Shown: positions 754 to 51,994 of the stretch, piece by piece
Layout of the letters: every line of letters starts with the position of its first letter
Numbering within the stretch: the stretch's first letter is position 1
IMG/VR virus record: IMGVR_UViG_3300017971_000034
Location: 6,822-70,821 of that record
Length of the DNA: 64,000 nucleotides
Direction: 5' to 3' (one strand)
Source of the DNA: a virus
Program-made: the position numbers and the translations under genes
The notes under the pieces: model-generated
Databases searched by the model: none
Seen by the model: only the letters and a program-made list of their open reading frames with translations
What the model was told of the DNA's origin: nothing

Positions 754-2217
754 TCACAGCGACCGCGCGACGTTATCGATGACCCACGCCTTGGTCGCGA
801 CCTTCAGGTACAGCGTCCCGAAGAGCATGAGCAGGAACGGGACCGTAGTCTTGACCTGGGCCAGCGGCCGTCGAACGAAGTCGAGCAGCTGGTCCCACTC
901 GACGACGTCGGGCGTGTTCTGCAGCAGGTAGATCTGGCTGCAACCGGTACGGTGTTCGTTGAGGTCGGAGATGACGGTGTCCACACCGAACGCCGCCCTC
1001 GGGAAGCTCCACATGTACTGAGCGGTACCGGCAGCTCCCCCCGGAGTGGACCGGAACACCCTGTAGTACCTGACGCTGTTGTTCTCCTCACCCTCAACCG
1101 GGATGGCGTTGTCGGTGATGGTGATATCCACCGACTCCCCGGCCGCGACGGCCACGCCGGCCGAGTTAACCGGGGCGGTAATGCCGCCGTCACCTACCGC
1201 GACCACACGGTAGATGTAGGTACCGGCATCGTCGGCGTAGAACTTCGAACCGACCGTGGCGCCCGGGTTTACCGCCGAAGCGATAACGGGCGCCGCCGGT
1301 GCGTAGGTACCGGCGGCGGCGGCGTTGGGCAACCGCTGGTAGAACATCAGCGGCATGGGTTCGATCTTGATCTCGCCGTAGGGGCCCACGACGAACAGCT
1401 CGCGATGACCGAAGGCGATCTGGCCGCCAGCCTGCCGCACCTTGACCTGGTCGTGGCGACCGTGGGCGGTCGCCTGATTGGACAGGGTCTGCCACACCTC
1501 CGGCTCGACCATGATGGTCGTCGGGTAGGCGAAGTTGGGGTGCGCGGCCAGGCCACCGAGAACCTCGACGAGCAACTGGAACGTGGCGGGCTTCCCCTCG
1601 AGGTCGGTATAGTTGTTCGCGGCACCGGTCCGGATCTGCTTGTACAGGCCGTCGAAGGATAGCGCCGAGAGGTTCGAATCGGCCAGGAACAGCTGCCTCT
1701 CGAGCTTACCGAGCAGGGACAGAGTGCCGTCCTGCGTCCGCTGCGCGAGTGCAGATCGGTTGACGCCCGTGATCCCGACCATGGTACCGACGTCGGTGAT
1801 CTCGATGTGCTCGTCGAGGAACTTCACCCGGACGGTCTGGCGGGCGTACGTGGCCTCGCTCTTCGGACCGACGCCGCCCTCCCCGATCCACGGGTCCAGG
1901 TCCATGTTTCCGTGGGACTGGACGACGCTCGACTCGTACAGCGTCGAGGTAATGGGTACCTTCTTAAGCGTCGGCCAGAACTTGATGTGCTTGTTGAGGA
2001 ACGTCGACGAATCGAGCGTCGGCTGGATCGACTGCGGAACCAGCGGGGCCAGCTCGGTCCCGGCACCGCTGACGAAGGGGACGCCCTGCTGCGGGTACCC
2101 GACGCCGCCCTTGGTGAAGCGTTGGGCGTTGGCGCGCAGCGCCTTGTTGAGCTCCCTAAGGGTACCGATCGAGACCTCCTGGCCCGCGATCGACTGGAGC
2201 GCGTTTAGCGGGTTCAT
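754..2217 (-). CDS. Major capsid protein (resembles SPO1/Twort-type MCPs)
   Basis: 487 aa, GGAGG RBS, follows protease and scaffold. Motifs LERQLFLADS..FDGLYKQI, inserted YIYRVVAVGDGG..AP domain, C-terminal FLLMLFGTL. Confidence 0.9.
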   Translation of the reverse strand: MNPLNALQSIAGQEVSIGTLRELNKALRANAQRFTKGGVGYPQQGVPFVSGAGTELAPLVPQSIQPTLDSSTFLNKHIKFWPTLKKVPITSTLYESSVVQSHGNMDLDPWIGEGGVGPKSEATYARQTVRVKFLDEHIEITDVGTMVGITGVNRSALAQRTQDGTLSLLGKLERQLFLADSNLSALSFDGLYKQIRTGAANNYTDLEGKPATFQLLVEVLGGLAAHPNFAYPTTIMVEPEVWQTLSNQATAHGRHDQVKVRQAGGQIAFGHRELFVVGPYGEIKIEPMPLMFYQRLPNAAAAGTYAPAAPVIASAVNPGATVGSKFYADDAGTYIYRVVAVGDGGITAPVNSAGVAVAAGESVDITITDNAIPVEGEENNSVRYYRVFRSTPGGAAGTAQYMWSFPRAAFGVDTVISDLNEHRTGCSQIYLLQNTPDVVEWDQLLDFVRRPLAQVKTTVPFLLMLFGTLYLKVATKAWVIDNVARSL

Positions 2218-2229
2218 ATCCGCACCTCC

Positions 2230-2916
2230 CTACAGCCCGATGCCGTACGCTTCGGCAACCTCGCTGGGGTTACCGTGGGTATCGATGTCGGCGATGGCCC
2301 GCCCCAGGTCCCACTTCCTCTCGTCGGCGGTCTCCGGGTTTTGGATCTCGTCCATCGCGGCCTTGATGATGCGGTTCCTCTCCCCGGCGGCCTTGGCTAC
2401 CGTCGCGGCATCCTTTTCGCCCGGGGACGGTTCGGCAACCGCCAAACCGGTAACCGAACGCGGTGGAACAGGGGAACCGAGGGCAGCACTCAGGCCCCCG
2501 ACCTGGGTTGCGAGTTCGTGGTTCTGGCTCACCAGGTGCTGGATGCCCTTGGTGAGCTGCTCGGTAAGGCGACCGACCGCCACCAATCCCTTGGCGAGCG
2601 AGTCGTGCCGGGACCCTAGCTCCTGCACGGCACGCTGAGTGGTCGATGCCGACTTCTGCAACCCCTCCATGAGGTCCGTTACGTCGACGAAGTCGTCGTC
2701 CGAGGGCGGGGGAGCCGGTTTCCCGCCGGACTTCCGCAAGCCATCAAGCCCCTCGCTGAGGGTTTCGAGGGCGGCGTCGAATTCGTCCTCGGAGATGACG
2801 CCGCCGATATCGTCCTCGACGCCGCCGGACTCGATACGGCCCTTGACGATCTCGTCGATCTTATCGTCGCCGAAACCCGCGTCGCGGAGGGCTCGGCGGA
2901 GCTCGCTCGCCTTCAT
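2230..2916 (-). CDS. Putative scaffolding protein
   Basis: Acidic/coiled-coil, lies between protease and MCP, several hydrophobic-x-K-[SAG] sites. Confidence 0.7.
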   Translation of the reverse strand: MKASELRRALRDAGFGDDKIDEIVKGRIESGGVEDDIGGVISEDEFDAALETLSEGLDGLRKSGGKPAPPPSDDDFVDVTDLMEGLQKSASTTQRAVQELGSRHDSLAKGLVAVGRLTEQLTKGIQHLVSQNHELATQVGGLSAALGSPVPPRSVTGLAVAEPSPGEKDAATVAKAAGERNRIIKAAMDEIQNPETADERKWDLGRAIADIDTHGNPSEVAEAYGIGL

Positions 2917-3749
2917 ACCTTTACTCCCTTCATCTTAGAGACGATCTCCTCAACGAGCCCCATACCCTGGGACCACGATAGGAACGGAAACTTCTTGAGG
3001 ACCTTGACGACCATGAGGTCGCGGGTCATCCCGACGGTGGTAGGCCCGCCGCCCTGCAGGCTCTGCGGGACCAGCTTCTCGAGACCGCCGGTACCCACGG
3101 CAGCCTCTCCCTGCTGCGGGTACCCGACCCCCTCGGCCCTGAATAACCAGGGTAGCGGGTACGGGACCTGGTAGCCGCCCCCAAACATGGAGGCGGCCAG
3201 CGGCTCGAACCACGAGTCGCGGTTCTTCGGAGCCGCACTGACCGCTACCGAGACCACCCTTGCCTTGGTAATACGCTTCCCCTGACGACCGCCGGGCAAC
3301 ACCTTCCCCTCGATGCTAAAACCCAGGCGACGGTGGCCACCGGCCTTCTTGAGGGACAGGGACTTCTCGTAGATCTTCTTACCGAGCTCGTCGTCCAGGA
3401 GCAGCAGCCCCTCGATATCGGTGGCCTTAAAGACCTTACCGTCCTTCTCGACGGTGGTGGGGGACACGTCGGTCGGGTGGCCAACGATGTTCATCACCCC
3501 GAGCGGGTGCTCGTAGGTGATGAACCCGTGGGACTTGAAGTACCCCCACTCGAGCCCGTCCTGATCTACGAAATCGCCGTCCTCGTCCTCGCGTTCGCTG
3601 GTAGCGACACCCTTAATGAGACCGTCCGGGGAATCCGGCCCCGCCTTAACTAGGTCGAAGGGGGTCCAAACCTCGAAGTCTGAACCCGACCTGGAGGAGA
3701 GTTGACCTACCACCATACCGTACCCTGAAAAATTGAGGGGCGCAACCAA
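2913..3749 (-). CDS. Prohead protease (start uncertain, possibly 3716)
   Basis: GVATSEREDEDGD..DQDGLEWGYF..HGFITYEH and LGFSIEG (catalytic His/Ser pattern). Confidence 0.88.
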   Translation of the reverse strand: MVAPLNFSGYGMVVGQLSSRSGSDFEVWTPFDLVKAGPDSPDGLIKGVATSEREDEDGDFVDQDGLEWGYFKSHGFITYEHPLGVMNIVGHPTDVSPTTVEKDGKVFKATDIEGLLLLDDELGKKIYEKSLSLKKAGGHRRLGFSIEGKVLPGGRQGKRITKARVVSVAVSAAPKNRDSWFEPLAASMFGGGYQVPYPLPWLFRAEGVGYPQQGEAAVGTGGLEKLVPQSLQGGGPTTVGMTRDLMVVKVLKKFPFLSWSQGMGLVEEIVSKMKGVKV

Positions 3750-3772
3750 CCTAACGTTGGCGCGCCCCTCAA
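3728..3772 (-). terminator. Strong hairpin plus U-run (terminator or regulatory stem-loop)
   Basis: TTGAGGGGCGC..CCAAC / GTTGG..GCGCCCCTCAA inverted repeat, followed by TTTTT on the minus strand. Confidence 0.6.
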
Positions 3773-3884
3773 GAGCCTAGTTCGATTCTCTGGCTTGTAC
3801 GTTCGGAGCGGGGGGCTCCACGTTCCCCGGGACGCCACGCCCGAGATACGGTACCGCAATTAAAGCACGGTTACACGTATAGAG

Positions 3885-4067
3885 TCAAGTATCTGACTGC
3901 AGGCGCAGCGGGAGGCGGGTACTGCGCCTACAGTGGTGGCAGTTTACCTCAACCTCACCGGTGGCCAGGGAGACGGCCACCAGCCGCGACCTACAGTGGA
4001 TCTTCAACTTACCGCCCTTAACCACGGACAGTACCGTCCCGCAATGCTGGCACCGTACCTCCCTCAC
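3885..4067 (-). CDS. Small zinc-ribbon protein (Mu Com-like)
   Basis: EVRCQHCG...EVNCHHC; GTG overlaps the MuF stop. Confidence 0.65.
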   Translation of the reverse strand: MREVRCQHCGTVLSVVKGGKLKIHCRSRLVAVSLATGEVEVNCHHCRRSTRLPLRLQSDT

Positions 4068-4900
4068 TTTACCAGGTTCCACGATGCGTCGAAACGGTAA
4101 CCGGGCGGTACCACGACCGTTCCGCAACGGCAGTTAGCGTGCAACGGATACAGCGTGGCCAGCCACTGGTCCGGCTTCCTACCGTGGTTGGTACCGTTGG
4201 CTAGGAGCGCGGACAGCGCCCAGACCTTCGGGCGCCCGGACGCGTCCAGGTAGAGGCGCAGGCAGTGTTCGCAGGTCCTACCGTCCCTCTCCGGAACCCT
4301 AGCTACGCGGGCAGACGGACCGTATTTAGCGGCACCGGCGGCCGCCACCGCCTCGTTGTGGGCCGCCTGAAGCTCGGTACGGGCGACCCGCAACCAGTCC
4401 CTCTCGAAACCGACGAACGCACCCGACAAGGCAGCCATCAGTTGTCCACGGTGCCAACCTCGGGACCGCGCCCTGTCGACCAGCTCCCGTATCGTCCCGC
4501 GGGCCTCCGTAGATAGGTTGGTGACGAGGGTACCGACGCGAGAGCGGGACTCCCCCCAGGTTAGGGCCTCCTGCTTCGTCAACCGGTCCGGGGCCCCGGA
4601 AGGGTCCTCGAGTAGGTCGGACGTACCGCCTATGACGCTACCTATCCAGTCCCCGGCCGACTTCCTAACCGGACGGGACGCCATCTCACCGTTTACGGCC
4701 TCGGTCCACCTACTGCGGGACCACCGCCTCATGGTGGGGTGGTTACCGGGGTCGGCCGCCACCATGACGGTACCGGTAACGGCGGCGTACGCCCACACGT
4801 CCAGCGGCGGGTCGGTACCGGGGACCAGGTAACCCAGGACGTCCGAACGCCAGGCCGACAGGTAACGCTCCACCAGTTCCTCGGCCCGGTGCGGGTCCAC
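4064..4900 (-). CDS. MuF-like minor head morphogenesis protein
   Basis: RVARTE...CEHC...PLHANCRC; downstream of portal. Confidence 0.85.
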   Translation of the reverse strand: MDPHRAEELVERYLSAWRSDVLGYLVPGTDPPLDVWAYAAVTGTVMVAADPGNHPTMRRWSRSRWTEAVNGEMASRPVRKSAGDWIGSVIGGTSDLLEDPSGAPDRLTKQEALTWGESRSRVGTLVTNLSTEARGTIRELVDRARSRGWHRGQLMAALSGAFVGFERDWLRVARTELQAAHNEAVAAAGAAKYGPSARVARVPERDGRTCEHCLRLYLDASGRPKVWALSALLANGTNHGRKPDQWLATLYPLHANCRCGTVVVPPGYRFDASWNLVK

Positions 4901-4903
4901 GTT

Positions 4904-5155
4904 CTACCCCTCCCGGTACCCCGATAGCAGCTCGTCGCGGATGCTCCGCAGGCGGCGCCGGAAGGAGGCGGATAGCTCCTCCCGGATGTCCTCCAAGACG
5001 TCCACCTCGCCATCCTGCCGGGCCCCGGCCTTGGACAGGTTACCGCTCAGCAGACCGCGGGCGAGCGACCGGAAGGCCACCTCCAACTTCCCGAGGAGCT
5101 CCTCCGGCGGTCGGTTCCACTCGCCGGAGACGGTCTGCTCGATCCGTACCCTCAC
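4904..5155 (-). CDS. Hypothetical head-module protein
   Basis: GTG overlaps the portal stop; helical; LSKA site. Confidence 0.55.
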   Translation of the reverse strand: MRVRIEQTVSGEWNRPPEELLGKLEVAFRSLARGLLSGNLSKAGARQDGEVDVLEDIREELSASFRRRLRSIRDELLSGYREG

Positions 5156-6915
5156 ACCGACACCGCCAGTACGTCCCCGGGACCGCGGACGACCGGTACC
5201 CATTTATCCCCGGAACGGTAGGCGGACAGGTCCAGGCGGCGGTCGTCCACCGCCGATGACAGGCCCTTCTCGAGCTCCTCCCACAGCTCCGCGTAGGAGG
5301 TTGCCCTCTGCAGGCGCCCCCCGGAGGAGAACCCGAACGCCTCGCCCTCTCCGAATTCCTCCCCACCCTCGACCTCCCCACCCTCGACCTCCCCACCCTC
5401 GGGTGGGTTGAACAGGCCCATCGTCATAGCGGCCTGCAGGTAGTTCGGGTTCATGATCATGTCGCCCAGGGGACCCGGTATGGGTTCCTCATCGTGCTCC
5501 GCCCGCACCTCGTTAACCCTCATGTAGTTGGTAAGGCGCTTGATGTCGAGGTCGACCTTCTGGTCCTCCGGCATCGAGTCGAACCCGCCGAACTCCAAGG
5601 ACAGGTCCTCGTACATGGGCCAGACGATTACCTCGTTCAGCCAGCTAGCCACCGACCGCAGCAGCGGCCGCAAGCCGCGCTCCCTGGACAGCAGCACCCG
5701 CTGGGCGGGTCCGGCCTGCTGCAGGGCAGACGTCTGCCCCTCGGAACCGAACACGAAGCCGAGCTCGGCCGGGTCTATCTGGTAGACGGCGCAGGCCACC
5801 TTCATCAGCCAGTTGATCCAGTTCGAGAACTCCATCTCCTTGTTCGTGTGCCCGAGCGAGACGGACTTGAGCTCCTCCTTCAGCTTCGGGTCCAGCTGGA
5901 TTATGGGGACCCTGCGGCTGTTGGCGACCCCGGACAGCATGGACGTAACCGACCGCCGGAACGCCCGGAAGCTGTCGTCGGTCATGTTCGACATGAGCGC
6001 CAGGATGGTAGACGAGTGGATACCGCTGGTGAAGTTAACCGCGTTGAACGTCTCCGCGTTCAGCAGGCTCGTCACGACGGTAACGATCTCCTCGTTCTCC
6101 GGGAAGCCGTAACCGGCTATCGGAAGCCAAGTCCTGGGCCTGCGGATACCCCACCCCATCTCGCTGCGGGCGTACTCGTTTACGATGGACTGCCGGTTGG
6201 GATCGACCTGTACGTAGGAAACCTTCTCAGGGTCCCACGTTCCGCGTTCGATGGCCTCCTCGCTGGGCTTAGCCCGCCGGATCGTGGAAGCGTCCACCGC
6301 GATGAACCCCCACGGCTTACCCTTCCGGTCGAAGATGGGTTCGAAGTTACCCTGGTCGTACGCCAGGGAGTCCCGCATCAGCATGCGCAGGAACGACTCG
6401 AACCCACCGGACTGGTACCGGCCGCCGGCACGCTGCACCACCACCATTACCTCGGCCATGGCGCGTTTAACGGCCGGGGTAGGCTTCGCCCCCCGGTCCC
6501 GCATCACGATGCGGGACCCCAAGCTGTACGGGGACCGCTGCGGTTCGGCGCACTCCGCCACCTGCTGGATGCGCGTCTGGTGGACGGCGCCCACAACCGG
6601 TACACGGGACATGGCCGTAAGGGTACCATAGGTAAACCCGAGGGTACCGGGGTGAACCTCCCCAGGAACGTCGCCGGAGTACGACCAGCGGATGTGCATA
6701 GGGTCGAAGAGCCAGGAGCGGGGGGCCTCCTCCTCACCGGCCAGGTCCACCCTGACCGCCTTGGAGACGTCCTCGCCCTCCTCGCCGGACGCCAACCCGC
6801 GCAGGGTCCAAGCGGGGTGGTCTGGGGTAACCGGGTCCGATCCCGCGGCGACCGCGTTAAGGTACGGGTCCTCACGTACCCGCTCTCCCACCACCAGGTC
6901 GGTTAACCAACCCAC
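5152..6915 (-). CDS. Portal protein
   Basis: RDSLAYDQGNFE, VDASTIR, GYGFPE, KEMEFSNW..ACAVYQIDPAELGF, GLRPLL, VNEVRAE. Confidence 0.92.
   Translation of the reverse strand: MGWLTDLVVGERVREDPYLNAVAAGSDPVTPDHPAWTLRGLASGEEGEDVSKAVRVDLAGEEEAPRSWLFDPMHIRWSYSGDVPGEVHPGTLGFTYGTLTAMSRVPVVGAVHQTRIQQVAECAEPQRSPYSLGSRIVMRDRGAKPTPAVKRAMAEVMVVVQRAGGRYQSGGFESFLRMLMRDSLAYDQGNFEPIFDRKGKPWGFIAVDASTIRRAKPSEEAIERGTWDPEKVSYVQVDPNRQSIVNEYARSEMGWGIRRPRTWLPIAGYGFPENEEIVTVVTSLLNAETFNAVNFTSGIHSSTILALMSNMTDDSFRAFRRSVTSMLSGVANSRRVPIIQLDPKLKEELKSVSLGHTNKEMEFSNWINWLMKVACAVYQIDPAELGFVFGSEGQTSALQQAGPAQRVLLSRERGLRPLLRSVASWLNEVIVWPMYEDLSLEFGGFDSMPEDQKVDLDIKRLTNYMRVNEVRAEHDEEPIPGPLGDMIMNPNYLQAAMTMGLFNPPEGGEVEGGEVEGGEEFGEGEAFGFSSGGRLQRATSYAELWEELEKGLSSAVDDRRLDLSAYRSGDKWVPVVRGPGDVLAVSV
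5361..5400. repeat. 15-bp tandem repeat (about 2.7 copies) encoding GGEVE in the portal tail
   Basis: ccccaccctcgacct repeated. Confidence 0.8.
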
Positions 6916-8385: not shown

Positions 8386-9520
8386 AGCAGGCGCCCACCC
8401 TTGCGAATATTTTACCGCGGGCGGCCACCCCCGTCAAGGACGCAGCTACAACCGCCCTACTAACAAGACCGCGGTCGACGACACCAGCGAGCCGCAAGAG
8501 ATCAGTTCCGATCTCAGACCACGTAGCGTCGAGCAGCTTCTCCTGTTCCGGCGTCAAGGTTAGTTCCTCCACGATCCCTACCTTTCCTTGCAGGTCCGCG
8601 GCCGCCTTCCACAGGTGCGCTTTCTCACGCGCGGCGTAGTCCACCAACAACCTAGACGAATAGCCACCGGGCGTAAGGTCAAACTCTGCACGAAACGTGT
8701 TACCGTAAGCCTTCCACCAAGTACGACCGGCCTCGGTGGACACGGCGACCACCATCGCAGCCCTGGCATCGCGACCTTCACCGTAGGCTGCCTCAACATC
8801 GGGCGGCAGCCCCACGCCGTGCCTGGCACCGTCCATTACTTGCCGAACACCGCGGTCATCACTCGGCGGCAGGTACCCAAGCCGAGCCCACGTGTAGTAC
8901 CCGTTATATCCGGAGCCGCGCAGGGCCTCACAACGGATCCGTTTAAACCCGGCGGCCTGAGCCGCCGCTACCTGCGACGCAAACATGCGCGTGCCCAAAC
9001 CAGTCCCTGTAGCCTCCTCAGAAATCGCGAAAGCCTCGTTGACAATCTCCGATCCCTTCGATCGATCATCCGGATCAACGGGCGCAAGCCGACGCACCCC
9101 ACCAAGCTCGCCGCTACCCCGATGAAAGAATACCTCAATCGATGGACGCTTATCTAGCCCAGACTCCGGCAACACTTCAACGGAAACGGTGGACCCTGGA
9201 GGGGCCCCAACTATCCTGGCGAAGTCCTCCAACGACCGTATATCGGTACCGGGAAGGTGCTCGCGGGCGAAGGCTACCGGATCGGGAGAATCCGGCTTTA
9301 CAAAGACCCTTACACCGTCCCCGCGAAACAGCTTGTCCCGAACGACGTAGAAGTCGTTGCCGTCCCCACCCGCGGGTGGGGACGGCCCAGCCACGCGCTT
9401 CGTGGGATACCAGTAGACCCATCTGCCGGCACGGCGCTTCCGGTAACCGCCGGAGTGACCACCCGGTATGGGCTGGTAACCGGGGGGAGGTCCGTCACCG
9501 GCCTTAACTACGTACCGCAC
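8354..9520 (-). CDS. Putative internal head protein with GNAT acetyltransferase-like domain
   Basis: GTGLGTRMF acetyl-CoA loop and NGYYTWARLGY motif; N-terminal GGYRK..WVYWYP module. Confidence 0.7.
   Translation of the reverse strand: MRYVVKAGDGPPPGYQPIPGGHSGGYRKRRAGRWVYWYPTKRVAGPSPPAGGDGNDFYVVRDKLFRGDGVRVFVKPDSPDPVAFAREHLPGTDIRSLEDFARIVGAPPGSTVSVEVLPESGLDKRPSIEVFFHRGSGELGGVRRLAPVDPDDRSKGSEIVNEAFAISEEATGTGLGTRMFASQVAAAQAAGFKRIRCEALRGSGYNGYYTWARLGYLPPSDDRGVRQVMDGARHGVGLPPDVEAAYGEGRDARAAMVVAVSTEAGRTWWKAYGNTFRAEFDLTPGGYSSRLLVDYAAREKAHLWKAAADLQGKVGIVEELTLTPEQEKLLDATWSEIGTDLLRLAGVVDRGLVSRAVVAASLTGVAARGKIFARVGACCARGGNDGEY
8409..8437 (-). promoter_or_regulatory. sigma70-type promoter
   Basis: TTGACG-N17-TAAAAT upstream of the 8385 start. 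Confidence 0.65.
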
Positions 9521-10145
9521 CGCGCACCACCAACCGCGCCTTACCGATCCCAACCCCCAGGCCGCGCTCCATCTCGGCGAGCGCCGTATAGTACGTCGGG
9601 AACTCCGCCAGGTGGTCGAGCGCGATCTGGGTAGCCGTAGCACGATCCGGGGTATGCTCCAACTCTACCTCTACCCCCATGCGGAGCTGCTCGGGGTCGA
9701 CATCGGCTGCGGTAAGGCCGGCGAGGGTGGCCTTACCGCCGGCGTCCAGCTGCGCGAAGCGGGCGGCCATGCCGTACAGGCACGACTCCAGGTCATCCGT
9801 TGAGATACCCTCGCGCTCGGCGAAATAGTGCACGGCCTCGTCGGGGATACGCTCACCGCCGTACGACAGCAGCAGCACGTAGAGGCGCAACCGCTGCTCG
9901 TCCGTCAGGGTACCCCCCCGACCCCCGGCAGCCTTCACCACGTACCGGCCCCCGCACGGGTCCCACAGGAGCGACCTCGTCAACCCCTTCCTGTCGGCAC
10001 GGCTGCTCTCCCGGCGCAGGATGCGACCCCCCATCTGCCGGTATACGCCCGTTATGTAGGCGTAGTCCCCGGCGCGCCCCGCCTTCCTAGCTATCTCCTT
10101 AGCCTTCTTCCACTTGTCCTCGTCGAGTACCCAGTTAGCCGGCAT
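9504..10145 (-). CDS. DUF5661-like head-module protein
   Basis: DPEQLRMGVEVELEHT..ATQIALDHLAEFPTYYTALAEME. Confidence 0.75.
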   Translation of the reverse strand: MPANWVLDEDKWKKAKEIARKAGRAGDYAYITGVYRQMGGRILRRESSRADRKGLTRSLLWDPCGGRYVVKAAGGRGGTLTDEQRLRLYVLLLSYGGERIPDEAVHYFAEREGISTDDLESCLYGMAARFAQLDAGGKATLAGLTAADVDPEQLRMGVEVELEHTPDRATATQIALDHLAEFPTYYTALAEMERGLGVGIGKARLVVRGAVRS

Positions 10146-10230
10146 ATGGGGTCCCCCCAAGTTAACCAAGGATGTTACCATAGACCGGGCCGCGGCGCCA
10201 GTCTTATATTCTATGGCGGTTACGTAGATA

Positions 10231-10297
10231 CGGGGGGCGGGAAGTCGAACCCCGTCCTGCCCTCAGCATCGGCAGGAGCCGACCACTCGGCCCCCCG
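10231..10297 (-). ncRNA. tRNA-like cloverleaf (degenerate, possibly Ser-GCT derived)
   Basis: CGGGGGG/CCCCCCG acceptor stem, CCGAGTGGTCGG D-like arm, TCCTGCC/GGCAGGA arm, CGGGG-TTCGACT-TCCCG T-arm; intergenic. Confidence 0.6.
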
Positions 10298-10309
10298 GTT
10301 ACCACCACC

Positions 10310-11257
10310 TCATGGTTTCTCTACCGGAGCAGGGGTGTCGAACGGGGAAGGTCGCCCGTTCCCGCCCACGACGCTGTTCACACCCTCGTCGCGTATCGCG
10401 GACCACTTCCAATACGGCGGATCTTGCCCGGACCCGCCATAGTTTAGCGTGCAATCCCTAACCCTGGCCCCTACCGCAGTAGGCACAACCCAAACTGCAC
10501 GCCGCTCCAGATGATCGGGATGCAGCATTCCGCGAACGCTGCATCTCTCGACGACAGCGTGCCTACCACCTATAACGAGACCACCGCCGTTCTCGCCCTG
10601 GTTAGCCTCGAAGTACACGCCGCGCACAGAACAATCACCCCTCACCCCGCCAATACGCAACGACCCCCCATCACAAAAATCAACCACGCCCCCCTCCACA
10701 TGAGCACCCCCCCAACAATCGTCTTCTGGGGAAGGACCTATCTCAAGCCCATACCCGCCGCAGTGCGACACGTGTACCCAACGCACGTTAAGGGCGTTAC
10801 ACCCACGCAACACGATACCGGATCCACCACACTGCGATACTATCAAACGGTTAGCCGTAGCGGTGGCACACACCACAAATTCGATACCAGTATCCTTAGC
10901 CCTCACCACAGACACCCTATCCGCGACAACATGTCCATAGTCTTTATAGGCATAAAGCCCACGACCGGCAAAGTTAGCAGCGTCTATCTTAAGGTTCTCA
11001 ACCTCACCGCGATCTACGTGTACAACAGCTACCCCAGAAAACTCAGAGGTAGCCTGCAGAATAGTCCTATCCCCCACCAACCGCGCATGGTCCCGCACCA
11101 CCACAGGTGTAGACACCTTATAGGTGTGGGGGCCGAGATACACGAACCCACCGACAGGAGCAGCATTTAAAGCTTGCTGAATCGCCACACCCGTTAGTTT
11201 ACTTACGGAAGCGTAACCGGTAGTCGTTTTCCAACCGGGGTACCGATGAACGGCCAT
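10310..11257 (-). CDS. Right-handed beta-helix (pectin-lyase-like) protein
   Basis: AIQQALNAAP.GG.VYLGPHTY N-cap, then repeating GI/GL strands; AT-richer than flanks. Confidence 0.75.
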   Translation of the reverse strand: MAVHRYPGWKTTTGYASVSKLTGVAIQQALNAAPVGGFVYLGPHTYKVSTPVVVRDHARLVGDRTILQATSEFSGVAVVHVDRGEVENLKIDAANFAGRGLYAYKDYGHVVADRVSVVRAKDTGIEFVVCATATANRLIVSQCGGSGIVLRGCNALNVRWVHVSHCGGYGLEIGPSPEDDCWGGAHVEGGVVDFCDGGSLRIGGVRGDCSVRGVYFEANQGENGGGLVIGGRHAVVERCSVRGMLHPDHLERRAVWVVPTAVGARVRDCTLNYGGSGQDPPYWKWSAIRDEGVNSVVGGNGRPSPFDTPAPVEKP

Positions 11258-11261
11258 GACC

Positions 11262-11675
11262 TTACCTAACCGTGAAACGATCACAACCCGAGAAAGGGTC
11301 TTTGATCGCGTTGTCCAAGTCACACTTCACACACCACACATTCGTCCGCCGCCCGTACCGACACCACCAACGGGACGGCAGTTCCCACTCCAGCGGGTCG
11401 CCGTCGTTCCACCAGCCGGGCGGCTCCGAGCGAGCTCGAACTGGCTCACTACCGAAGGTGTTCACACTGAAGCAGCAAGGGAGTACGGACTCGAGGCTCC
11501 CGCAGCTAGCCCCAGCGCACTGCTGCTCCCAGGCGACGTCGCGGCGTTCGGCTATCACCGTCCCGGGATACGAATGCGCTCCCACGCAGAACGTGTTGGC
11601 CGCCGGTGCTCGGCATACCCGTCCGTTCCACCCATCGTCGTGCCACGCGACCCGAGCCGAGACGTGAATAGTCAT
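11262..11675 (-). pseudogene. N-terminal fragment of a large defence-island RecD-like helicase/ATPase
   Basis: SARVAWHDDGWNGRVC..PAANTFCVG.HSYPG resembles the N-terminus of that family (recalled, not searched); no helicase motifs follow. Confidence 0.55.
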
Positions 11676-11683
11676 GGCGAGCC

Positions 11684-11884
11684 TCAGTCATCCCCGAGGC
11701 GCATTCGGGCAACGTCGTAGTACATGAGGAGCTTTTCGTCCTCTTGTGGGTCTCGAAGCTTCTCAGCCAGAAGCGCCAGAAAGTGCTCGCGTCGAGCTTT
11801 GTCGTTCTGGAACGTCATCCCCAGACACTCGACTGGTTCTGCTGCGTGTTCGTCGTCCAGGGAGAGATCGCGCTGGTCGCTCAT
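11684..11884 (-). pseudogene. Internally deleted BREX-3-type (PglXI-like) DNA methyltransferase: N-terminal about 46 aa fused to C-terminal about 20 aa
   Basis: PVECLGMTFQNDKARREHFL..L.EKLRDP joined to QEDEKLLMYYD..RL; GGAG RBS intact. Confidence 0.65.
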
Positions 11885-11925
11885 GACTGCTCCTTCGACT
11901 GCCTTCGCGTGAACCTTTCGAAGGT

Positions 11926-12414
11926 TCACAGTGCCCTTCCCAACACCAGCGCCAGCGGCACAAGTACCGCGGCGGTAATTACCGAGGTAACCGTCGCCAC
12001 GAACCAAGGACGCTCGTACCACGGAACCGACGCCATCTCCGGACACGGCCGCAGGGCGATCTCGCAGCACCTGTCGCCACGCTGGCGCTCGGCACGAAGA
12101 ACCGAATCGGCCAACCTCGAGTCGTTCTCCCGGGCCCGCTTCTCTAACTCCACGCGCTTCCTACACGCGGGAAGATTTGCCTTGACGCACTTCGCCCCCT
12201 CCCGGACCAACTTCTCGGGCCCCAGTACGCCCCCACAGGGAGCTGGTTTACCCGCCTCAGTTCCGTGAAACCGGTCACACTTCTTGGGACCGGGGGTAGC
12301 CGCACCGGCTTCGTGACCGCACAGCGTCAGGAAGAACGCAACGATGAAGATCAGCGCCCAACCAAGCCCCCACAGTAACATCGGGTCGGTTGACTCAGAC
12401 CGCAACCTAGTCAC
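11926..12414 (-). CDS. Membrane/exported protein, possible spanin component
   Basis: Hydrophobic N- and C-terminal segments, Cys-rich; in the lysis region. Confidence 0.45.
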   Translation of the reverse strand: MTRLRSESTDPMLLWGLGWALIFIVAFFLTLCGHEAGAATPGPKKCDRFHGTEAGKPAPCGGVLGPEKLVREGAKCVKANLPACRKRVELEKRARENDSRLADSVLRAERQRGDRCCEIALRPCPEMASVPWYERPWFVATVTSVITAAVLVPLALVLGRAL

Positions 12415-12724
12415 GTTCCCTCCCTCCCCTAGAAAGCCTCATAACCACACGCTCGACCATCGCAACCATCAAGGGTACGGCGGTCGCCTCTCTGGTCGCA
12501 TAACCGAACGCCGGCGCAAGCTCCTCGTAGACCTCGTGGAAGAGCGCGGCCAGCTCCTCGGCGCTCGGCCACAGCGGTTGCGGGGCCCCGTCAACCAGCA
12601 AATGAACCCTACTGTTACGCCACGCGTCCTCAAGCAGGGGGTACCCCCTGCGGTCCTCGTGGGCGTGCCACCCGGCGTGGTAGCCCTCGAAGAAGGCGAC
12701 CTCTACCGCGTCATTCGTTACCAC
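12407..12724 (-). CDS. Hypothetical protein
   Basis: Tightly packed in the operon. Confidence 0.5.
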   Translation of the reverse strand: MVTNDAVEVAFFEGYHAGWHAHEDRRGYPLLEDAWRNSRVHLLVDGAPQPLWPSAEELAALFHEVYEELAPAFGYATREATAVPLMVAMVERVVMRLSRGGRERD

Positions 12725-13370
12725 GGTTCTCCCTCCTCGTTCTCACCATCAGCTTATCCGCGCACTCCTTCGAACACGTTAACCTGGGTCGGTCCGACCT
12801 ACCCTTCAACCGCCCAAAGGTGACCCCGCATACGGCACAATTGGCGACGCCGCCGGCCGGCCGGCGGCGGAACCCCCTAATGTACCTCCTGTTGTAGCAC
12901 CTGGTACACCTACCCCCGCCGTAGTGCGGTCGTTCAACGGTACCGCACTCGACGCATTCATCGTGGTCCCTGGCCCAGTGGTCGGAGGAGAGACCGTACT
13001 TGGGGCCGGCCGACTCGGACGCCAGGTACCCCTCCAGGGCGTCCGCATGCTCCGGATATATCAACCACCGACGCTGCCCACCGTACGGCACGGTACGTAT
13101 GGCGGGCGTACCCATACCAAAACCGCCGCGCAACCTGAGAGCGCGGGCCGCGCGGCGCACCTGATGGTAATCGTAACCGGTACGCCGGCAGAAGCCATTG
13201 AGGCTCTCCGTACCTACGAAGACCGACTTGGTATAGCCGAGGCGCCCCACCTTCTCGCGGCAGGAGGTGACTGAGCGGCCTATAGCTTTAGCTACCTTCG
13301 TCGGTTCGTACACCCCCCACATGGTGAGGAGAAGCCTTACCTCGTCGTCCGTCCAACGCTTACCCGGCAC
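12711..13370 (-). CDS. HTH plus zinc-finger protein
   Basis: WTDDEVRLL Myb/GcrA-like start; several CxxC pairs. Confidence 0.6.
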   Translation of the reverse strand: MPGKRWTDDEVRLLLTMWGVYEPTKVAKAIGRSVTSCREKVGRLGYTKSVFVGTESLNGFCRRTGYDYHQVRRAARALRLRGGFGMGTPAIRTVPYGGQRRWLIYPEHADALEGYLASESAGPKYGLSSDHWARDHDECVECGTVERPHYGGGRCTRCYNRRYIRGFRRRPAGGVANCAVCGVTFGRLKGRSDRPRLTCSKECADKLMVRTRRENRGNE

Positions 13371-13526
13371 TACTATCTCTCCCTACGAAGCCATTGAATA
13401 GCACAATGGCGTCGTTGCCCAGACCCTACGACCCTCGCACCACCCACCTCCCCGCCCGTAAGCCTATCTGGATAGGTGTGCACCGTATGTGGTATAGCCC
13501 CCGGGAGGTTTGCCCATTCCTCGTCT

Positions 13527-14174
13527 CTATTCGCCACCATCATCCATTAACCCCCCAACCGCATTCCAACGCTGCAGGAACCACCAATCGCGCACCAGGC
13601 AGCGGAGGTCCTCGGTCGAAAACCGACCAAGGTCACCGGCCACCTGAGACCACGTTACGGGAACACCAGACACGACCGGTGCCGGTATATTGAGGGACCG
13701 TATTAGCCTCAGTAGATAATCACGGGAACCACCCGGAACCGGCGTCTGGTCATACAGCTCCTCGGCCACGGCGATACCCTTGCGGGCGCGCTCCCTCCAG
13801 TCTTCCCCCAACCCGTAGAGCTCGTTCAGGTCCTCGGCGACCTCGTCAACGTTACCGGCGTGCTCATCCACCCTCTCCAAGACCGTTCGCTCGGCCTCGT
13901 CCACCGCCCGCCGCTCGACCTCCAATTCACGCACGCGCTCCGCGTGCTTCCGGGCGGCCGCAACTGCCGCGAGGCGGGCCTTGGCCTCCACCGCGGCCAC
14001 CTCCCGAGAGCGTACCGCATTCTCGCGCGCGACGTCTCGCTCCCGCTTCGTACGCTGGTGGGAGCGCCATTCCAGCACCCACCCGGCGACCGGTATCAGG
14101 GCAGCCAATATCGGCAACAGATACTTACAGAGCCACCGCCACAGCTTCGCCCAGAAGGTTAGTTTCCCACCCAT
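13527..14174 (-). CDS. N-terminal TM plus coiled-coil protein, i-spanin-like
   Basis: One TM segment then a long Ala/Glu/Arg helix; downstream of endolysin and holin. Confidence 0.5.
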   Translation of the reverse strand: MGGKLTFWAKLWRWLCKYLLPILAALIPVAGWVLEWRSHQRTKRERDVARENAVRSREVAAVEAKARLAAVAAARKHAERVRELEVERRAVDEAERTVLERVDEHAGNVDEVAEDLNELYGLGEDWRERARKGIAVAEELYDQTPVPGGSRDYLLRLIRSLNIPAPVVSGVPVTWSQVAGDLGRFSTEDLRCLVRDWWFLQRWNAVGGLMDDGGE

Positions 14175-14401
14175 CACGGCAACCACCATCCCTTACTCTC
14201 CTGAGCCACGCGCCGGCGGAGGCCCGTTTCGAAGGCCTCGACGACCTCGGCCACGGATACCTCCCCGGTAAACACGGCCTCGGCGATGACCCCGGTCGGT
14301 ATGGTCTTAACGGCGAAGTCATTCCTCCAGATCCGCCCCATCTGCTCCAGTATAGCGTTGCGGCAGACCGCAGCGCCCGGCCGCTTCAGAACTGGGCCCA
14401 T
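14174..14401 (-). CDS. Hypothetical protein
   Basis: GGAGG RBS, directly after a promoter. Confidence 0.55.
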   Translation of the reverse strand: MGPVLKRPGAAVCRNAILEQMGRIWRNDFAVKTIPTGVIAEAVFTGEVSVAEVVEAFETGLRRRVAQESKGWWLP

Positions 14402-14431
14402 AACATCCTCCCACAGCAGCTTCCCGGGGCC

Positions 14432-14461
14432 AAGGTACCCCGACTAACGGCGCCTTGTCAA
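14432..14461 (-). promoter_or_regulatory. sigma70-type promoter
   Basis: TTGACA-N18-TACCTT, intergenic. Confidence 0.6.
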
Positions 14462-14654
14462 GGTAGTTATTATTCAGGCCTAGGAGGCCGCAGGCGGCTC
14501 AGGTAGTAACGGCACGACCTTATGGGGAGGTTGGGAACGTTACCCCGCCACGCGGCGCAGTGGTCCGGACCGTACAGCCGGCGCACCCGGTGGTGGCACG
14601 AGTCGCACAGGGACTCGTGCACGGAATCCCCGACCACGGCTACGAACTTCTCCC

Positions 14655-21067: not shown

Positions 21068-22786
21068 CTATACCCCGTCCATCCCCAGCTCGTCCAGCAA
21101 GCCTCCCCACAGACGCTCCCTCTGTACGGCCCGGAGGTCGTCCTGGGACCGCGGACCGGCTTCCACAGGAACCTCCGCGAAAACCGGTTCGGCCGGCCCC
21201 GCGATCTCCACCCGATGACCGCGGAACGAGTATCCCCTGGCCCCGTCCCACGCGAACCAGCTGGACATGAGGCGGTCCCCGGTGTGCCCCGCCGGATCGT
21301 AGTACAGCATCTCCAGTATCCAGGCCTCCACCTCCGGGTGGGACCTGAGAACGGGGCGGCCCCTCTCATCCGTCGCGGGGGAACCGTCCGGGCGCAGCAC
21401 CGGGAGGCTAGCCATTACGAACTTACCCTGCGCCATGGTAGCCGATACGCCCTCTATACCGAACTGCGGGTGGTGCTTCTTGGAGGACGTTTCGAACGGC
21501 TCCACCTCGATGTGCTTCCCGGTAAACAGCTCACTGAGCTCCTCCCCCAAATCCCTAACGTGCTCCTGGGCGGCGTTGGACTCGACCCGGATCTTGGAAC
21601 CGTACCGGTCGCGGGAGGCGTAGATCCTCTTGAGGATGGGAAGGGCTTTCCACTTCCCCGTCTCTATGCACAGAACCAGCAGGTCGTTCGGCTCGAAGTC
21701 CACTCCCCAAGCGCGCGTCGCTACCGAAAACTTCAACATGTGGAAGAAGGAGGTAAGGTTACTCTTCTTGGTCCTCTTCACACCCAGGTCCACGGCCGTG
21801 AACGCGGCGGCCCCCAACGGACACGGGTTACTGTCGTCGAACGCCAACAGCTGCAATCCGCGATCGCCCCACAGTCCCAGACCCCGCTCCCTACAGCGGT
21901 AGATGTCGTCCTCCGAGAACCGGCTGTCGCTCTCCGACCGAGCGCGGCACCTGAGCTGGCGCTCGGCCTCCACCGAGCCCGCCCCACCTAGCTCGTCCTC
22001 CTTCCTGCTGATACGCCTATTGGACCACTGTTCCGGCCACCGGGGGGTACCGTCCGGGTAATCCACCGTGAACGTACGCGCGTACCACCCGGGGCGCTTC
22101 GCGAGCTCGTGCATCGCGTCCTCGGGGTGCCACGCGTTACCCAGGAACCAGATCCACGCGTCTTGCGTCATGCGCCCGAGCAGTACCGACTCGATCTGGT
22201 GGAGCACCTGCTTCCGCATGTACGCGCTGAGCGTGTTGTCGATCGTCAGAATGTCGTCGAGGATAAGCCCGTCGATCCTGTTCCCCAACACGTTCGCGAT
22301 GCCCTTGACACCGGCTACCTGCAGCGAGTAGTCGCGACCGGGCGGGTCCTCAGACCCCTCTTCGCACACCCGGATCGCCTGCCCGGTCCACGGCTCCCCC
22401 GGGCGGATCCGCGGGAACACGCGCCGGTACTCCTCGGAGTGCTCTATGTACCACTTGACGGACCGGACCACCTTCTTCGCGTTAAAGGCGGTATTCTGGA
22501 TGACAACGAGGCGTTTTCGAAAGTCGTTCCCGAGCTCGAACAGGGGACGCGCTACCGACACCTGCTGGGTCTTACCCATCTCAACGTGTCCCCAGACCAC
22601 GGCCCGGTCGTGGTTGTTCAGGAAATTCTGCAACCGACAGTGATAAGGGGCCTGCTGAATCCGCTTCCCCGTCCGCTCGTGCCGCAGCACGAACGGCACG
22701 AATACGTTGATGTCCTCGGACGCCAAGCGGGACCGCGCCGAGCGTACACGCTTGGCTTTCGCGATCAGTACCTCGTCCTTCACCAC
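21068..22786 (-). CDS. terL: Terminase large subunit
   Basis: Walker A-like VEMGKT, Walker B LILDD, GNAWHPED, nuclease AVDLG, VESNAAQ, HTGDRLMSSW. Confidence 0.92.
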   Translation of the reverse strand: MVKDEVLIAKAKRVRSARSRLASEDINVFVPFVLRHERTGKRIQQAPYHCRLQNFLNNHDRAVVWGHVEMGKTQQVSVARPLFELGNDFRKRLVVIQNTAFNAKKVVRSVKWYIEHSEEYRRVFPRIRPGEPWTGQAIRVCEEGSEDPPGRDYSLQVAGVKGIANVLGNRIDGLILDDILTIDNTLSAYMRKQVLHQIESVLLGRMTQDAWIWFLGNAWHPEDAMHELAKRPGWYARTFTVDYPDGTPRWPEQWSNRRISRKEDELGGAGSVEAERQLRCRARSESDSRFSEDDIYRCRERGLGLWGDRGLQLLAFDDSNPCPLGAAAFTAVDLGVKRTKKSNLTSFFHMLKFSVATRAWGVDFEPNDLLVLCIETGKWKALPILKRIYASRDRYGSKIRVESNAAQEHVRDLGEELSELFTGKHIEVEPFETSSKKHHPQFGIEGVSATMAQGKFVMASLPVLRPDGSPATDERGRPVLRSHPEVEAWILEMLYYDPAGHTGDRLMSSWFAWDGARGYSFRGHRVEIAGPAEPVFAEVPVEAGPRSQDDLRAVQRERLWGGLLDELGMDGV

Positions 22787-31314: not shown

Positions 31315-31672
31315 GCATTAAATTACTACAAACGAAACGAGAACAACCGCCGCACAACCACACCTCCCCGCACCCGGTAACGGGACCACCAAAACCGGAA
31401 ACGTCTAACCAGGTACCGTTCACCGGGAGGGGAGACACCCGCGCCACGAACAGGTCGAACAGCTCCCGCACCCTGGATAGAGCCTCGACGGCCTCGTCCA
31501 CGGACAGGTCCCGACCCGCACAGTCGCCGGACCACTCGCTGCGGAGGTCCGAGAACAACGCCGCGCCCTCCTCACCGGCGACATGGTACGCTACCTCGGA
31601 CAACTCCTCAACGAGGGCGGCCAAGCACCCCGTATAGCTACAGGTACCCCGACCCCCCACGGTGACCGTTAC
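31286..31672 (-). CDS. Hypothetical protein (start uncertain)
   Basis: Fills the gap after the PurA-family gene. Confidence 0.4.
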   Translation of the reverse strand, partial: VTVTVGGRGTCSYTGCLAALVEELSEVAYHVAGEEGAALFSDLRSEWSGDCAGRDLSVDEAVEALSRVRELFDLFVARVSPLPVNGTWLDVSGFGGPVTGCGEVWLCGGCSRFVCSNLMLDTEYGIMF

Positions 31673-32742
31673 CACGGGAACGACCGACGCCACACGGTAT
31701 CGGCTACCCGCGGGCCGGTAGACAGGATATCGAAGGGGCGCCCCACCAGGGACTCGTTGTTCCGGATCCAGTCCCTGGTCTTGGTAGATAGACGGCCCCA
31801 TTCGCACACCCCCCTATCCTCGTGGTTCAGGTAGTCGACGAAGGTCAGCGCCAGCCGCGTCGGTTGACATACCGTAACGGCCCTCCTGACCTCCAACGGG
31901 TCGAACAACGCAACGCGGCGGGTACGCTTCGACACGGTCGTCTGCTCGACGATCGGCTCCGGGGACCCGGAAAACTCCGTAACCTCCTCCCACGTGGTCT
32001 CCCTACCCATGGGGCCGCTAGTTCCTGACCCAACCGACGGTACGCGGATGGGGAAGGTACGCACCACCATTACGACCTCGTTAACCAGGTGCGGGGCCAC
32101 CCCCACCTCGGAACACACCACCGCCGGGCTGGTATCGCGCGAGGTAACGTACGGGTAGTACCCGTAGTAGGAGCTGAGGCCGAACCCCTGCGTACCCTCC
32201 AACAGGATGTTGCGGCCCTCGGTACGGGCTTCGTCCACCACCGACGGAACGTCCCCCAGGTACCTCTGGAAGCGCGGTTCGTCACCCGCCAGCGGGACGT
32301 CCCGCCTGCCGCGGTCCAGTATACGGCGGGCCAGGGCCTCGCCGGTTCCCTCGGCCGTGGACCCTATGCGGTCCCGCAGCGACCCCTCCGGAGAATTCCC
32401 GTCGTCGACGTGACCCTCGCGCCTCATATCCTCCCGCGTTACCAGACTAGCGCGCGGGTCGATAACGAGGCGGTCGGGCCCCAACCCGAACCTGGCTATC
32501 TCCTCGCACAGTACGTCCGGCTGCAGTACCGCCCCGGGGCCGATGGCCATCCGCAGGTGCCGATAACACGCACCAGAAGGGAGACTGCGCGTAACGTGGA
32601 ACGCGCCGTTCGGACCCTCGAACACGTGCCCCGCGTTGGGGCCGCCACCGCGTACCGACAGGTCCGCCCCCTGAGCCAGCATACCGGCCACCTTGCCCTT
32701 CCCCTCGGAACCGAACTGGCCACCCACCACCACCGTTATCAT
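31669..32742 (-). CDS. purZ: PurA-family synthetase with PurZ0-type signatures (probable diaminopurine/Z pathway)
   Basis: GGQFGSEGKG (Ser at the PurA Asp13 position), NAGH, EGTQG, YPYVTSRD, RTFPIRV, SGP, TTVSKRTRRV, TFVD. Confidence 0.8.
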   Translation of the reverse strand: MITVVVGGQFGSEGKGKVAGMLAQGADLSVRGGGPNAGHVFEGPNGAFHVTRSLPSGACYRHLRMAIGPGAVLQPDVLCEEIARFGLGPDRLVIDPRASLVTREDMRREGHVDDGNSPEGSLRDRIGSTAEGTGEALARRILDRGRRDVPLAGDEPRFQRYLGDVPSVVDEARTEGRNILLEGTQGFGLSSYYGYYPYVTSRDTSPAVVCSEVGVAPHLVNEVVMVVRTFPIRVPSVGSGTSGPMGRETTWEEVTEFSGSPEPIVEQTTVSKRTRRVALFDPLEVRRAVTVCQPTRLALTFVDYLNHEDRGVCEWGRLSTKTRDWIRNNESLVGRPFDILSTGPRVADTVWRRSFPW

Positions 32743-46405: not shown

Positions 46406-46761
46406 GTAAAACCTCGCGAGCGTTGGACCACCGCGGCCCCGTATGGGGACAGGTGGCTGAGCTGATCGATCTGTGGAAGGACGGCGGTTCGTGTAGCAGT
46501 ACCGACCTCGCCACCGACATACTGGAGGTCGTTAGGCGGGTCCTGGCCAACCAGGGTCAGGACGGCCCCGAGCAGTTGGTATGCTGTTTCCGGGGATGCG
46601 ACGAGGTCGCCGAGTGGGCCCTGACACCCTGTGACGGTACCTCCCGACAACGAGCAGGACACTACACGCACGTCTGCGACGAGCACGTCGGGAAGCTGCT
46701 GTCGTGCGGCCGCGGAATCGACTGGAGCGTTAGCCCGCTCGGTGGACGGGATGAAGGATAA
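46402..46761 (+). CDS. Hypothetical protein
   Basis: ATGA overlap with the preceding ORF. Confidence 0.5.
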   Translation: MSKTSRALDHRGPVWGQVAELIDLWKDGGSCSSTDLATDILEVVRRVLANQGQDGPEQLVCCFRGCDEVAEWALTPCDGTSRQRAGHYTHVCDEHVGKLLSCGRGIDWSVSPLGGRDEG

Positions 46762-50737: not shown

Positions 50738-50855
50738 CAATAGCCGACGTGGCAGCGAGGTGGGTGGGCGCCAGGACCATCCACCGCCACCACCTGAGTT
50801 CTTCGAAACCGTTCGGGATCAAGGCATTGGAGATCTTCAGTGCAGGGAGGGCATC

Positions 50856-51927: not shown

Positions 51928-51994
51928 GTAGGGTCTGGGACCGGCCACATGCGCTTGGTGCGTAGGTGGCACCGGGGGACGGAGCGCCCCGCGG

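Follow-up and report, generated by a model that had tools for sequence, protein, structure and literature searches.

Two stubs of a BREX type 3 defence locus in a phage genome, probably the relic of a captured bacterial segment

The IMG/VR virus record IMGVR_UViG_3300017971_000034 is a phage genome of ~71 kb (GC 63%) whose 70,821 bases carry direct terminal repeats and are rated 100% complete. Bases 6822–70821 of this record, the 64,000-nucleotide (nt) stretch that we analysed and call the window, encode on the minus strand two adjacent stubs of bacterial defence genes. The first, a 66-amino-acid (aa) open reading frame (ORF) named P0001, consists of the two extreme ends of PglXI (also BrxXI), the N6-adenine methyltransferase of bacteriophage exclusion (BREX) type 3. 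The second, a 137-aa ORF named P0002, begins with the N-terminal domain of a RecD-like helicase of the PADLOC candidate defence family PDC-S68. We consider it probable (about 0.6) that the pair is a genomic scar, what two deletions have left of a single contiguous stretch that the phage lineage captured from a bacterial BREX type 3 locus. The native start signals are kept and the stubs sit tightly within a string of minus-strand genes; therefore they are probably still translated, as passenger micro-proteins that we judge to be without enzymatic activity and without a role in BREX.

Both halves of P0001 match the same methylase, with E-values far beyond chance. In BLASTP, residues 1–47 aligned with residues 1–47 of the 928-aa PglXI P0003 (31/47 identical, 66%; E 3e-20) and residues 37–66 with residues 900–927 (22/30 identical; E 3e-09), so that residues 47–66 correspond to 908–927. 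An initial annotation, made from the letters alone, had described a 66-aa ORF with a good ribosome-binding site, in which the N-terminus and last 20 residues of a methylase are fused in frame without the catalytic body, and had proposed this BLASTP as its check; the two alignments at opposite ends of one protein are what it had anticipated, and they were repeated with P0008 (921 aa) and P0055 (950 aa). Searched in six frames with P0003, the phage genome again yielded both pieces, the N-terminal end at E 9.4e-15 and residues 908–927 at 90% identity, and the PADLOC PglXI model (PDLC02541) matched P0001 in two stretches (E 1.4e-12). Full-length relatives scored 1319–1598 bits on that model, the three scanned across its full extent 1319–1332 bits. 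Searching a large protein database with P0001 gave 156 proteins at E ≤ 0.01 among 230 candidates, and 118 of the 120 listed matches are 882–963 aa long and carry PF01555. P0001 is thus colinear with PglXI over residues 1–46 and the last 20 residues, at 66% and about 73–90% identity, differing in its missing middle, its phage location and its lack of BREX neighbours. No Pfam or PHROG family matched P0001, the PF01555 core included.

Because the join lies between P46 and Q47, in frame, about 861 codons are missing (residues 47–907 of PglXI). The absent part holds the DPPY and S-adenosylmethionine (SAM)-binding motifs visible in P0003, and with them all catalytic motifs. It also holds the target-recognition domain and nearly all of the C-terminal helix–turn–helix (HTH) region: BrxXI is described in the available text of PMC12839542 as having a nested target-recognition domain and a C-terminal region of about 280–300 aa with three HTH domains. 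Judged from its sequence, P0001 is unable to methylate. Its first 46 residues form an N-terminal prelude, a beta-hairpin and helix that end just before the catalytic DPPY motif of the full-length proteins; AlphaFold2 placed strands at 18–20 and 23–25 and a helix at 28–44, with a predicted local distance difference test (pLDDT) of about 74–87. The whole model had a mean pLDDT of 70.6, with 57–68 in the C-terminal helix, and a predicted template modelling (pTM) score of 0.45. P0001 keeps every position that is at least 80% conserved in 118 PglXI proteins, 16/16 at the N-terminal and 14/14 at the C-terminal end, in a comparison set that was retrieved by similarity to P0001 and is hence biased; in the same biased set, residues 901–920 are the fourth most conserved 20-aa window of the family, beside the catalytic motifs. 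No solved structure related to PglXI by sequence was found beyond a CcrM motif.

P0002 starts 8 nt after the stop codon of P0001, as had been noted. Its residues 1–105 correspond to positions 1–106 of the 1,202-position PDC-S68 model (PDLC05066; E 7.7e-41), and an exhaustive phmmer search retrieved 539 proteins at E ≤ 0.001, the full-length ones about 1150–1330 aa long. P0124 is the closest of these (56% identity). It carries a RecD-like superfamily 1 (SF1) helicase core, with Pfam AAA_30, AAA_19 and UvrD_C_2 at about 580–1050, and resembles RecD and RecD2 structures in that core only. The families named in the initial annotation, a PglXI-like methylase and a RecD-like defence helicase, were thereby borne out. 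Only residues 1–106 of P0124 are present in the phage genome (E 5e-38), and no helicase similarity past residue 106 was found in any frame. The initial annotation was right about an N-terminal helicase match in this segment and too short in its measures: the match covers 105–106 residues instead of ~97, and the second ORF runs 123 bases beyond the left edge of the proposed range (11385–11930), to 11262, for a total of 137 aa. PDC-S68 proteins are RecD-like SF1 helicases of about 1200 aa with a C-terminal nuclease-like region; P0002 has neither the helicase core nor that region, matched no Pfam or PHROG family, and ends in 31 residues with no similarity to the helicase or to anything else found. 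Within the shared domain it keeps all eight invariant columns (W11, H12, G18, C21, P24, N27, C30 and C67) and all ten nearly invariant ones. AlphaFold2 modelled residues 1–100 at pLDDT 83–98 (pTM 0.76) and the tail at 43–50, and the tail is predicted to be disordered. The domain fold had no match at E ≤ 0.001 in the Protein Data Bank (Foldseek) or in BFVD, a set of viral predicted structures, none at Z ≥ 2 among 48,161 chains (VIA-align) and no usable match in the ESM Atlas; the term 'PDC-S68' did not occur in the literature searched. A deletion hot spot near helicase residues 105–115 was considered and rejected, as short matches break at many places and many are contig-end fragments. The best match of P0002 in the databases was a 313-aa protein, P0123, with the helicase N-domain at 1–116 followed by an SF2 Helicase_C domain at 151–247; it may be a deletion product in which the embedded helicase is joined to the BrxHII-like gene that follows, or it may be a fragment.

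The two stubs map to neighbouring genes of one bacterial arrangement. According to the available text of PMC10799925 and PMC12839542, a BREX type 3 locus comprises brxF, brxC, pglXI, brxHII, pglZ and brxA. Among 80 genome loci with a full-length PglXI, 68 have BrxC upstream of it, 49 have PglZ downstream and 39 have BrxHII downstream; therefore the PglXI-type family is the BREX type 3 methylase. A distant relative of the helicase occurs in only 3 of these 80 loci, twice between brxC and pglXI and once upstream of brxC, never downstream of pglXI. Metagenomes searched with an alignment of the helicase contributed 14 loci that encode the N-domain, and in two of them, L093 and L098, pglXI is directly upstream (of the remaining 12, several offer under 3 kb of upstream sequence). 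In L093, pglXI (2191–5004) overlaps the helicase ATG (5001) by 4 nt; in L098 it ends 25 nt before the helicase; and in both loci PADLOC identified BrxC, PglXI, PDC-S68, BrxHI/HII and PglZ. A tree built from helicase N-domains places the phage stub as sister to the L093 helicase and P0124, at a node with support 93/67 that is not starred, on an end branch of 0.59 compared with 0.21–0.22 for its sisters. Because the helicase directly follows pglXI in these two BREX type 3 loci, the two stubs are best read as coming from one contiguous donor segment; one capture of a pglXI–helicase segment followed by deletions would therefore account for their arrangement.

The slot between pglXI and brxHII is also where the accessory defence gene BxaP is found, as reported in the available text of PMC10799925. 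The PDC-S68 helicase fills the same slot in L093 and L098, which is why the stubs would be adjacent in the phage, whereas its relatives in the genome loci lie elsewhere (3/80) or are absent (77/80). Helicases of this type may already be listed among the BREX type 3 accessory effectors in the supplementary gene-neighbourhood tables of PMC12839542. An insertion slot could also be argued from the gaps after pglXI, which exceed 300 nt in 43 of 60 BREX type 3 loci; we set this evidence aside because a divergent brxHII could occupy many of the gaps. In a third metagenomic locus, L089, the helicase stands beside GajB-like and DrmA/DrmB-like genes.

We propose that the donor was a locus of the L093/L098 type, with brxC, pglXI, an embedded PDC-S68 RecD-like helicase-nuclease gene, brxHII and pglZ. 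An in-frame internal deletion of about 2.6 kb would have taken the body of pglXI (DPPY, SAM-binding motifs, target-recognition domain and HTH domains), a second break would have taken the helicase gene from codon 107 on, and all DNA upstream of the pglXI ribosome-binding site would have been lost. The deletion in pglXI could predate the capture, having arisen in the donor bacterium, or have followed it in the phage. Nothing else of the donor locus was found. Searching the phage by tblastn with nine proteins of L093 and L098 returned, at E < 0.01, only the PglXI ends and helicase residues 1–106; BrxC, BrxHII and PglZ of L093 and BrxC and BrxHII of L098 gave nothing in the window at E < 0.1 (BrxF and BrxA had no queries of their own); no BrxC remnant was found upstream of P0001; and a PADLOC scan of 75 window ORFs found no BREX protein.

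The junctions are present in assemblies from two studies. Two contigs, 40,109 and 27,230 bases long and each from a different run and study (2018 sediment and 2021 seawater), bridge positions 10300–12500 with no difference, no joint and a word depth of about 30; each run carries a flag as a possible source of the record, and the comparison is of contigs, not raw reads. The identical ORF, called as 81 aa from an upstream GTG, is also found on 3 + 2 contigs, the longest of 70,842 bases. No RNA dataset appeared among the sequencing runs listed for the sequence. A chimeric contig joining phage DNA to bits of a bacterial BREX locus might be feared for any genome derived from metagenomes, and a 218-nt, depth-3 contig of run X2 contains 35 bases of the C-terminal PglXI part before departing from the phage; but given the two long crossings from separate studies, the repeated ORF and the complete, terminally repeated record, we regard such an artefact as highly improbable. 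The 35 bases of the run X2 contig lie on window positions 11709–11743 with one difference, and its flanks, by eye, are those of a full-length-type PglXI C-terminus; an organism bearing BREX type 3 may be present in the same seawater sample.

Codon composition and the fate of other modification genes also point to a relic. The GC content at third codon positions (GC3) is 0.65–0.75 in the stubs, compared with 0.82–0.88 in the portal, terminase, capsid and polymerase genes. The neighbouring genes are atypical too (0.55 for the beta-helix gene downstream and 0.73), so the stubs appear to be foreign, unadapted DNA within an accessory region; the overall GC content of the segment is not distinctive, and only GC3 stands out. 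Two further DNA-modification genes are broken in the same genome. A C5-cytosine methylase frame is interrupted by a single in-frame TGA at 51375–51377 and is probably a second inactivated methylase gene. Shortly after it, residues 38–69 of an 86-aa ORF match positions 2–33 of the 447-position DndC model, with a further match to PRK06850 (7–49/505), and then diverge at the PP-loop; no other piece of a DndC/3'-phosphoadenosine-5'-phosphosulfate (PAPS)-reductase gene was found in the genome. The unrelated, low-pLDDT tail of P0002 and the weak model of P0001 likewise fit a remnant, an in-frame join arises by chance one time in three, and in-frame deleted or fused forms of these genes exist in metagenomes (the P0016 family, P0123 and P0275).

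Several observations speak against a relic. There is no decay inside the retained pieces: P0001 keeps 30/30 conserved positions (in the biased set) and P0002 18/18 invariant or nearly invariant ones despite its long end branch (0.59). The start codons, strong ribosome-binding site, native stop codon and close spacing to the following gene have all survived, and the helicase sequence breaks off where a module ends that is modelled by itself at pLDDT 83–98. Three separate trimming events would all have left translatable ORFs, and phage genomes tend to shed useless DNA. Finally, the C-terminal PglXI motif in P0001 is conserved about as strongly as the catalytic motifs, as a docking motif would be. 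The missing decay is explained by a recent capture as well as by selection, and the data do not separate the two.

Selection would be expected if the stubs were dominant-negative decoys that together disarm a BREX type 3 locus with a back-up helicase-nuclease effector. P0001 would then show the two PglXI end motifs without the enzyme, fill the PglXI docking site and block assembly of the BREX type 3 complex, the docking partner being BrxC, by analogy with type 1, or BrxF, PglZ or BrxHII; the folded, sensor-like N-domain set free in P0002 would titrate the trigger of the helicase-nuclease or poison its oligomer, and so neutralise the back-up. The retention of all conserved residues and translation signals, the confident model of the N-domain with its break at the module end, the ranking of the C-terminal PglXI motif with the catalytic motifs and the presence of both targets in one donor-type locus all fit this proposal. 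Work on type 1 BREX fits it too: in the available text of PMC11842806, BrxX and BrxC are reported to co-purify, with the conserved end domains of BrxX suspected by the authors of acting in assembly, and C-terminal PglX and BrxC mutations are reported, in the part of PMC13326643 consulted, to uncouple methylation from restriction. Predicted as a complex with the last 724 residues of the L093 BrxC (alignment A3), P0001 scored 0.02 against a mark of 0.32, which is evidence neither way. Against a decoy stand the P0001 model, which is not a compact fold (pTM 0.45), the junk-like tail of P0002, the codon composition, which is not adapted to the phage, and the broken modification genes elsewhere in the genome, which point to decay; inhibitors derived from defence proteins are moreover reported as rare in the available text of PMC11656645. 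We therefore think it unlikely that P0001 blocks assembly and P0002 neutralises the helicase-nuclease.

The lack of recurrence also counts against a decoy. Recurrence in related phages, as expected of a class of BREX inhibitors, was not seen: no other phage among those searched carries either stub, an observation that also counts for the relic. A search for forms of the same length in 5.8 billion proteins returned three matches from four candidates, namely the ORF of this phage itself, an N-terminal fragment and another chimera. In 50,697 phage records, tblastn with P0001 gave no match and with P0002 only two short, unannotated faecal contigs, and pattern scans of IMG/VR found no mini form of the stubs. 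An apparent 18–63 match on a viral contig, L004, was rejected as a mini form because it is the C-terminal PglXI end beside a Mu-like prophage. The phage itself has no visible kin in these collections: megablast of positions 10000–14000 against phages, tblastn of the terminase against the 50,697 records, and IMG/VR pattern scans with P0002, the beta-helix protein, a 219-aa ORF and the portal all returned no relatives. By these sequence comparisons the lineage is very isolated. The initial annotation had offered a decoy or a decaying capture; unique stubs, foreign codons, broken modification genes and a disordered tail favour the capture, and the decoy is the less likely of the two.

Two groups of metagenomic proteins show other rearrangements of the same genes. 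P0275 and P0276 (82 aa; on 1 + 3 contigs) join the first ~43 residues of PglXI in frame to the last ~39 of BrxC, the latter compared with the C-terminal consensus of alignment A3; they differ from each other at residues 6 and 11 only and could stem from a stretch of about 260 nt spanning the brxC/pglXI junction that was duplicated in tandem. P0016, P0278 and P0279 (323 aa; three contigs) join PglXI residues ~1–127 in frame to the last ~195, and the frame is open in all three variants, which differ at about ten positions.

Comparison with known phage countermeasures places the stubs apart. To our knowledge, no inhibitor of BREX type 3 is known. Described anti-BREX proteins include Ocr, a DNA mimic that binds BrxX, the T3 SAM lyase, and OrbA, which binds BrxC (PMC12839542, available text). 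These would share target system and outcome with the stubs only if the decoy proposal is right, and unlike P0001 and P0002 none derives from a BREX protein. Inhibitors made from defence components are exemplified, in the available text of PMC11656645, by AcrIF3 (a mimic of a Cas8f domain), viral Cas4 and single-repeat RNA anti-CRISPRs. The logic would be that of a decoy, in which a virus-encoded piece of the defence forms dead-end complexes; those cases are experimentally supported, whereas the stubs are known from sequence and models. In the accessible parts of the literature that we found on anti-BREX factors and on truncated or dominant-negative phage homologues, no BREX-derived phage protein is described.

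A third possibility is that the stubs were co-opted for something outside BREX, either translation coupling to the beta-helix gene or use of the Cys/His-rich N-domain as a small metal-binding protein. The spacing is suggestive: the 8 nt between P0001 and P0002 are followed by only 4 nt between the P0002 stop codon, which lies within AGGTAAGG, and the ATG of the beta-helix gene at 11257; the minus strand of 9500–13500 showed neither a promoter-like nor a terminator-like site; and the N-domain is confidently modelled. Coupling, however, needs no particular protein sequence, so it leaves the kept conserved residues unexplained, and no viral protein with the N-domain fold was found in BFVD at the threshold given above. 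We hold co-option to be quite improbable, less so than an assembly artefact and more so than a decoy; the relic is our preferred account of the stubs. Features of the window are listed in Table 1.

Table 1. Features of the window discussed in the text (window coordinates).
Feature	Position	Strand	Evidence or remarks
Major head protein	754–2217	−	PHROG match
Head protease	2913–3749	−	PHROG match
Portal	5152–6915	−	PHROG match
Beta-helix gene, downstream neighbour	10310–11257	−	Pfam PF13229 (E 9.8e-11) and PF12708
P0002, 137-aa ORF	11262–11675	−	ATG 11675–11673, TAA 11264–11262
P0002 codons 107–137 and TAA, tail of 31 residues	11262–11357	−	Unrelated to helicase
P0002 codons 1–106, PDC-S68 N-terminal Cys/His-rich domain	11358–11675	−	PADLOC, phmmer, own-genome search, AlphaFold2
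Spacer of 8 nt, P0001 stop to P0002 ATG	11676–11683	−	GAGG across the stop region, 6 nt before ATG
P0001, 66-aa ORF	11684–11884	−	ATG 11884–11882, TGA 11686–11684
P0001 codons 47–66 and TGA, extreme PglXI C-terminus (QEDEKLLMYYD motif region)	11684–11746	−	BLASTP, own-genome search
P0001 codons 1–46, PglXI/BrxXI N-terminal prelude	11747–11884	−	BLASTP, own-genome search, conservation, AlphaFold2
Shine–Dalgarno-like GAAGGAG	11890–11896	−	5 nt upstream of P0001 ATG (sequence)
162-aa ORF, upstream neighbour, no known family	11926–12414	−	Ends 41 nt before P0001 ATG
Large terminase	21068–22786	−	PHROG match
C5-cytosine methylase frame, interrupted	50760–51599	+	Motifs I, IV PCQ and VI ENV in 50760–51377; motif X region 51438–51569
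86-aa ORF, DndC/PAPS-reductase-type N-terminal stub	51754–52014	+	PADLOC DndC, E 7e-08

The stub pair lies between the large terminase and portal genes, on the same strand, within ~14 kb of ORFs without family matches that separates the two. Gene order thus makes its placement in a late region, as proposed in the initial annotation, plausible as a fair guess. An SbcC-like protein, a UvsX-like recombinase and a PurZ/PurA-like gene (PHROG) are also on the minus strand in the first 36 kb, and a plus-strand block encodes a helicase, a family A polymerase, a dCMP deaminase and a gp32-like protein. The product of the gene downstream of the stubs is, by its Pfam matches, a right-handed, pectate-lyase-like beta-helix, probably a tail spike or depolymerase. 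The upstream 162-aa ORF has, by eye, an N-terminal hydrophobic stretch followed by a lipobox-like LTLC, and a second hydrophobic stretch at its C-terminus, a layout that appears spanin-like. Repeats flanking the segment were uninformative, and no Rfam RNA family was found in 9000–14500.

ARAGORN called a tRNA-Ser(gct) of 68 nt at 10230–10297 (minus strand), between the beta-helix gene and a DUF5661 gene; it is short for a serine tRNA and had no Rfam match at E ≤ 0.1 in 9000–14500. The PurZ/archaeal-PurA-like gene (31669–32742, minus strand) scored 198.5 bits on the PurZ model, under the cut-off of 300. A dATP/dGTP diphosphohydrolase N-domain (PF18909) is encoded in the plus-strand group of genes at 43014–45566, 46631–47356 and 47353–47937, which also holds the dCMP deaminase and the family A polymerase, the latter fused to a domain of the uracil-DNA glycosylase (UDG) superfamily. 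Together, the PurZ-like gene and the PF18909 protein hint at a 2-aminoadenine (Z) genome.

If the stubs are a relic, they offer a clean and datable case of a virulent-type phage acquiring host defence DNA and then whittling it down, and they record a little-described BREX type 3 layout in which a PDC-S68 helicase-nuclease directly follows pglXI. If they are decoys, no anti-BREX factor before them would have been made from a BREX protein and no inhibitor would have been known for BREX type 3; they would also be a rare case of a virus recycling a defence protein as its own inhibitor. The extreme ends of PglXI, the N-terminal prelude and the C-terminal QEDEKLLMYYD-type motif, would then be indicated as docking and interaction elements, and the stubs would offer an existing means of dissecting BREX type 3, on whose biochemistry the accessible parts of the literature searched are silent. 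Under either reading, the final 20 residues of PglXI, being so strongly conserved, give a lead that can be tested.

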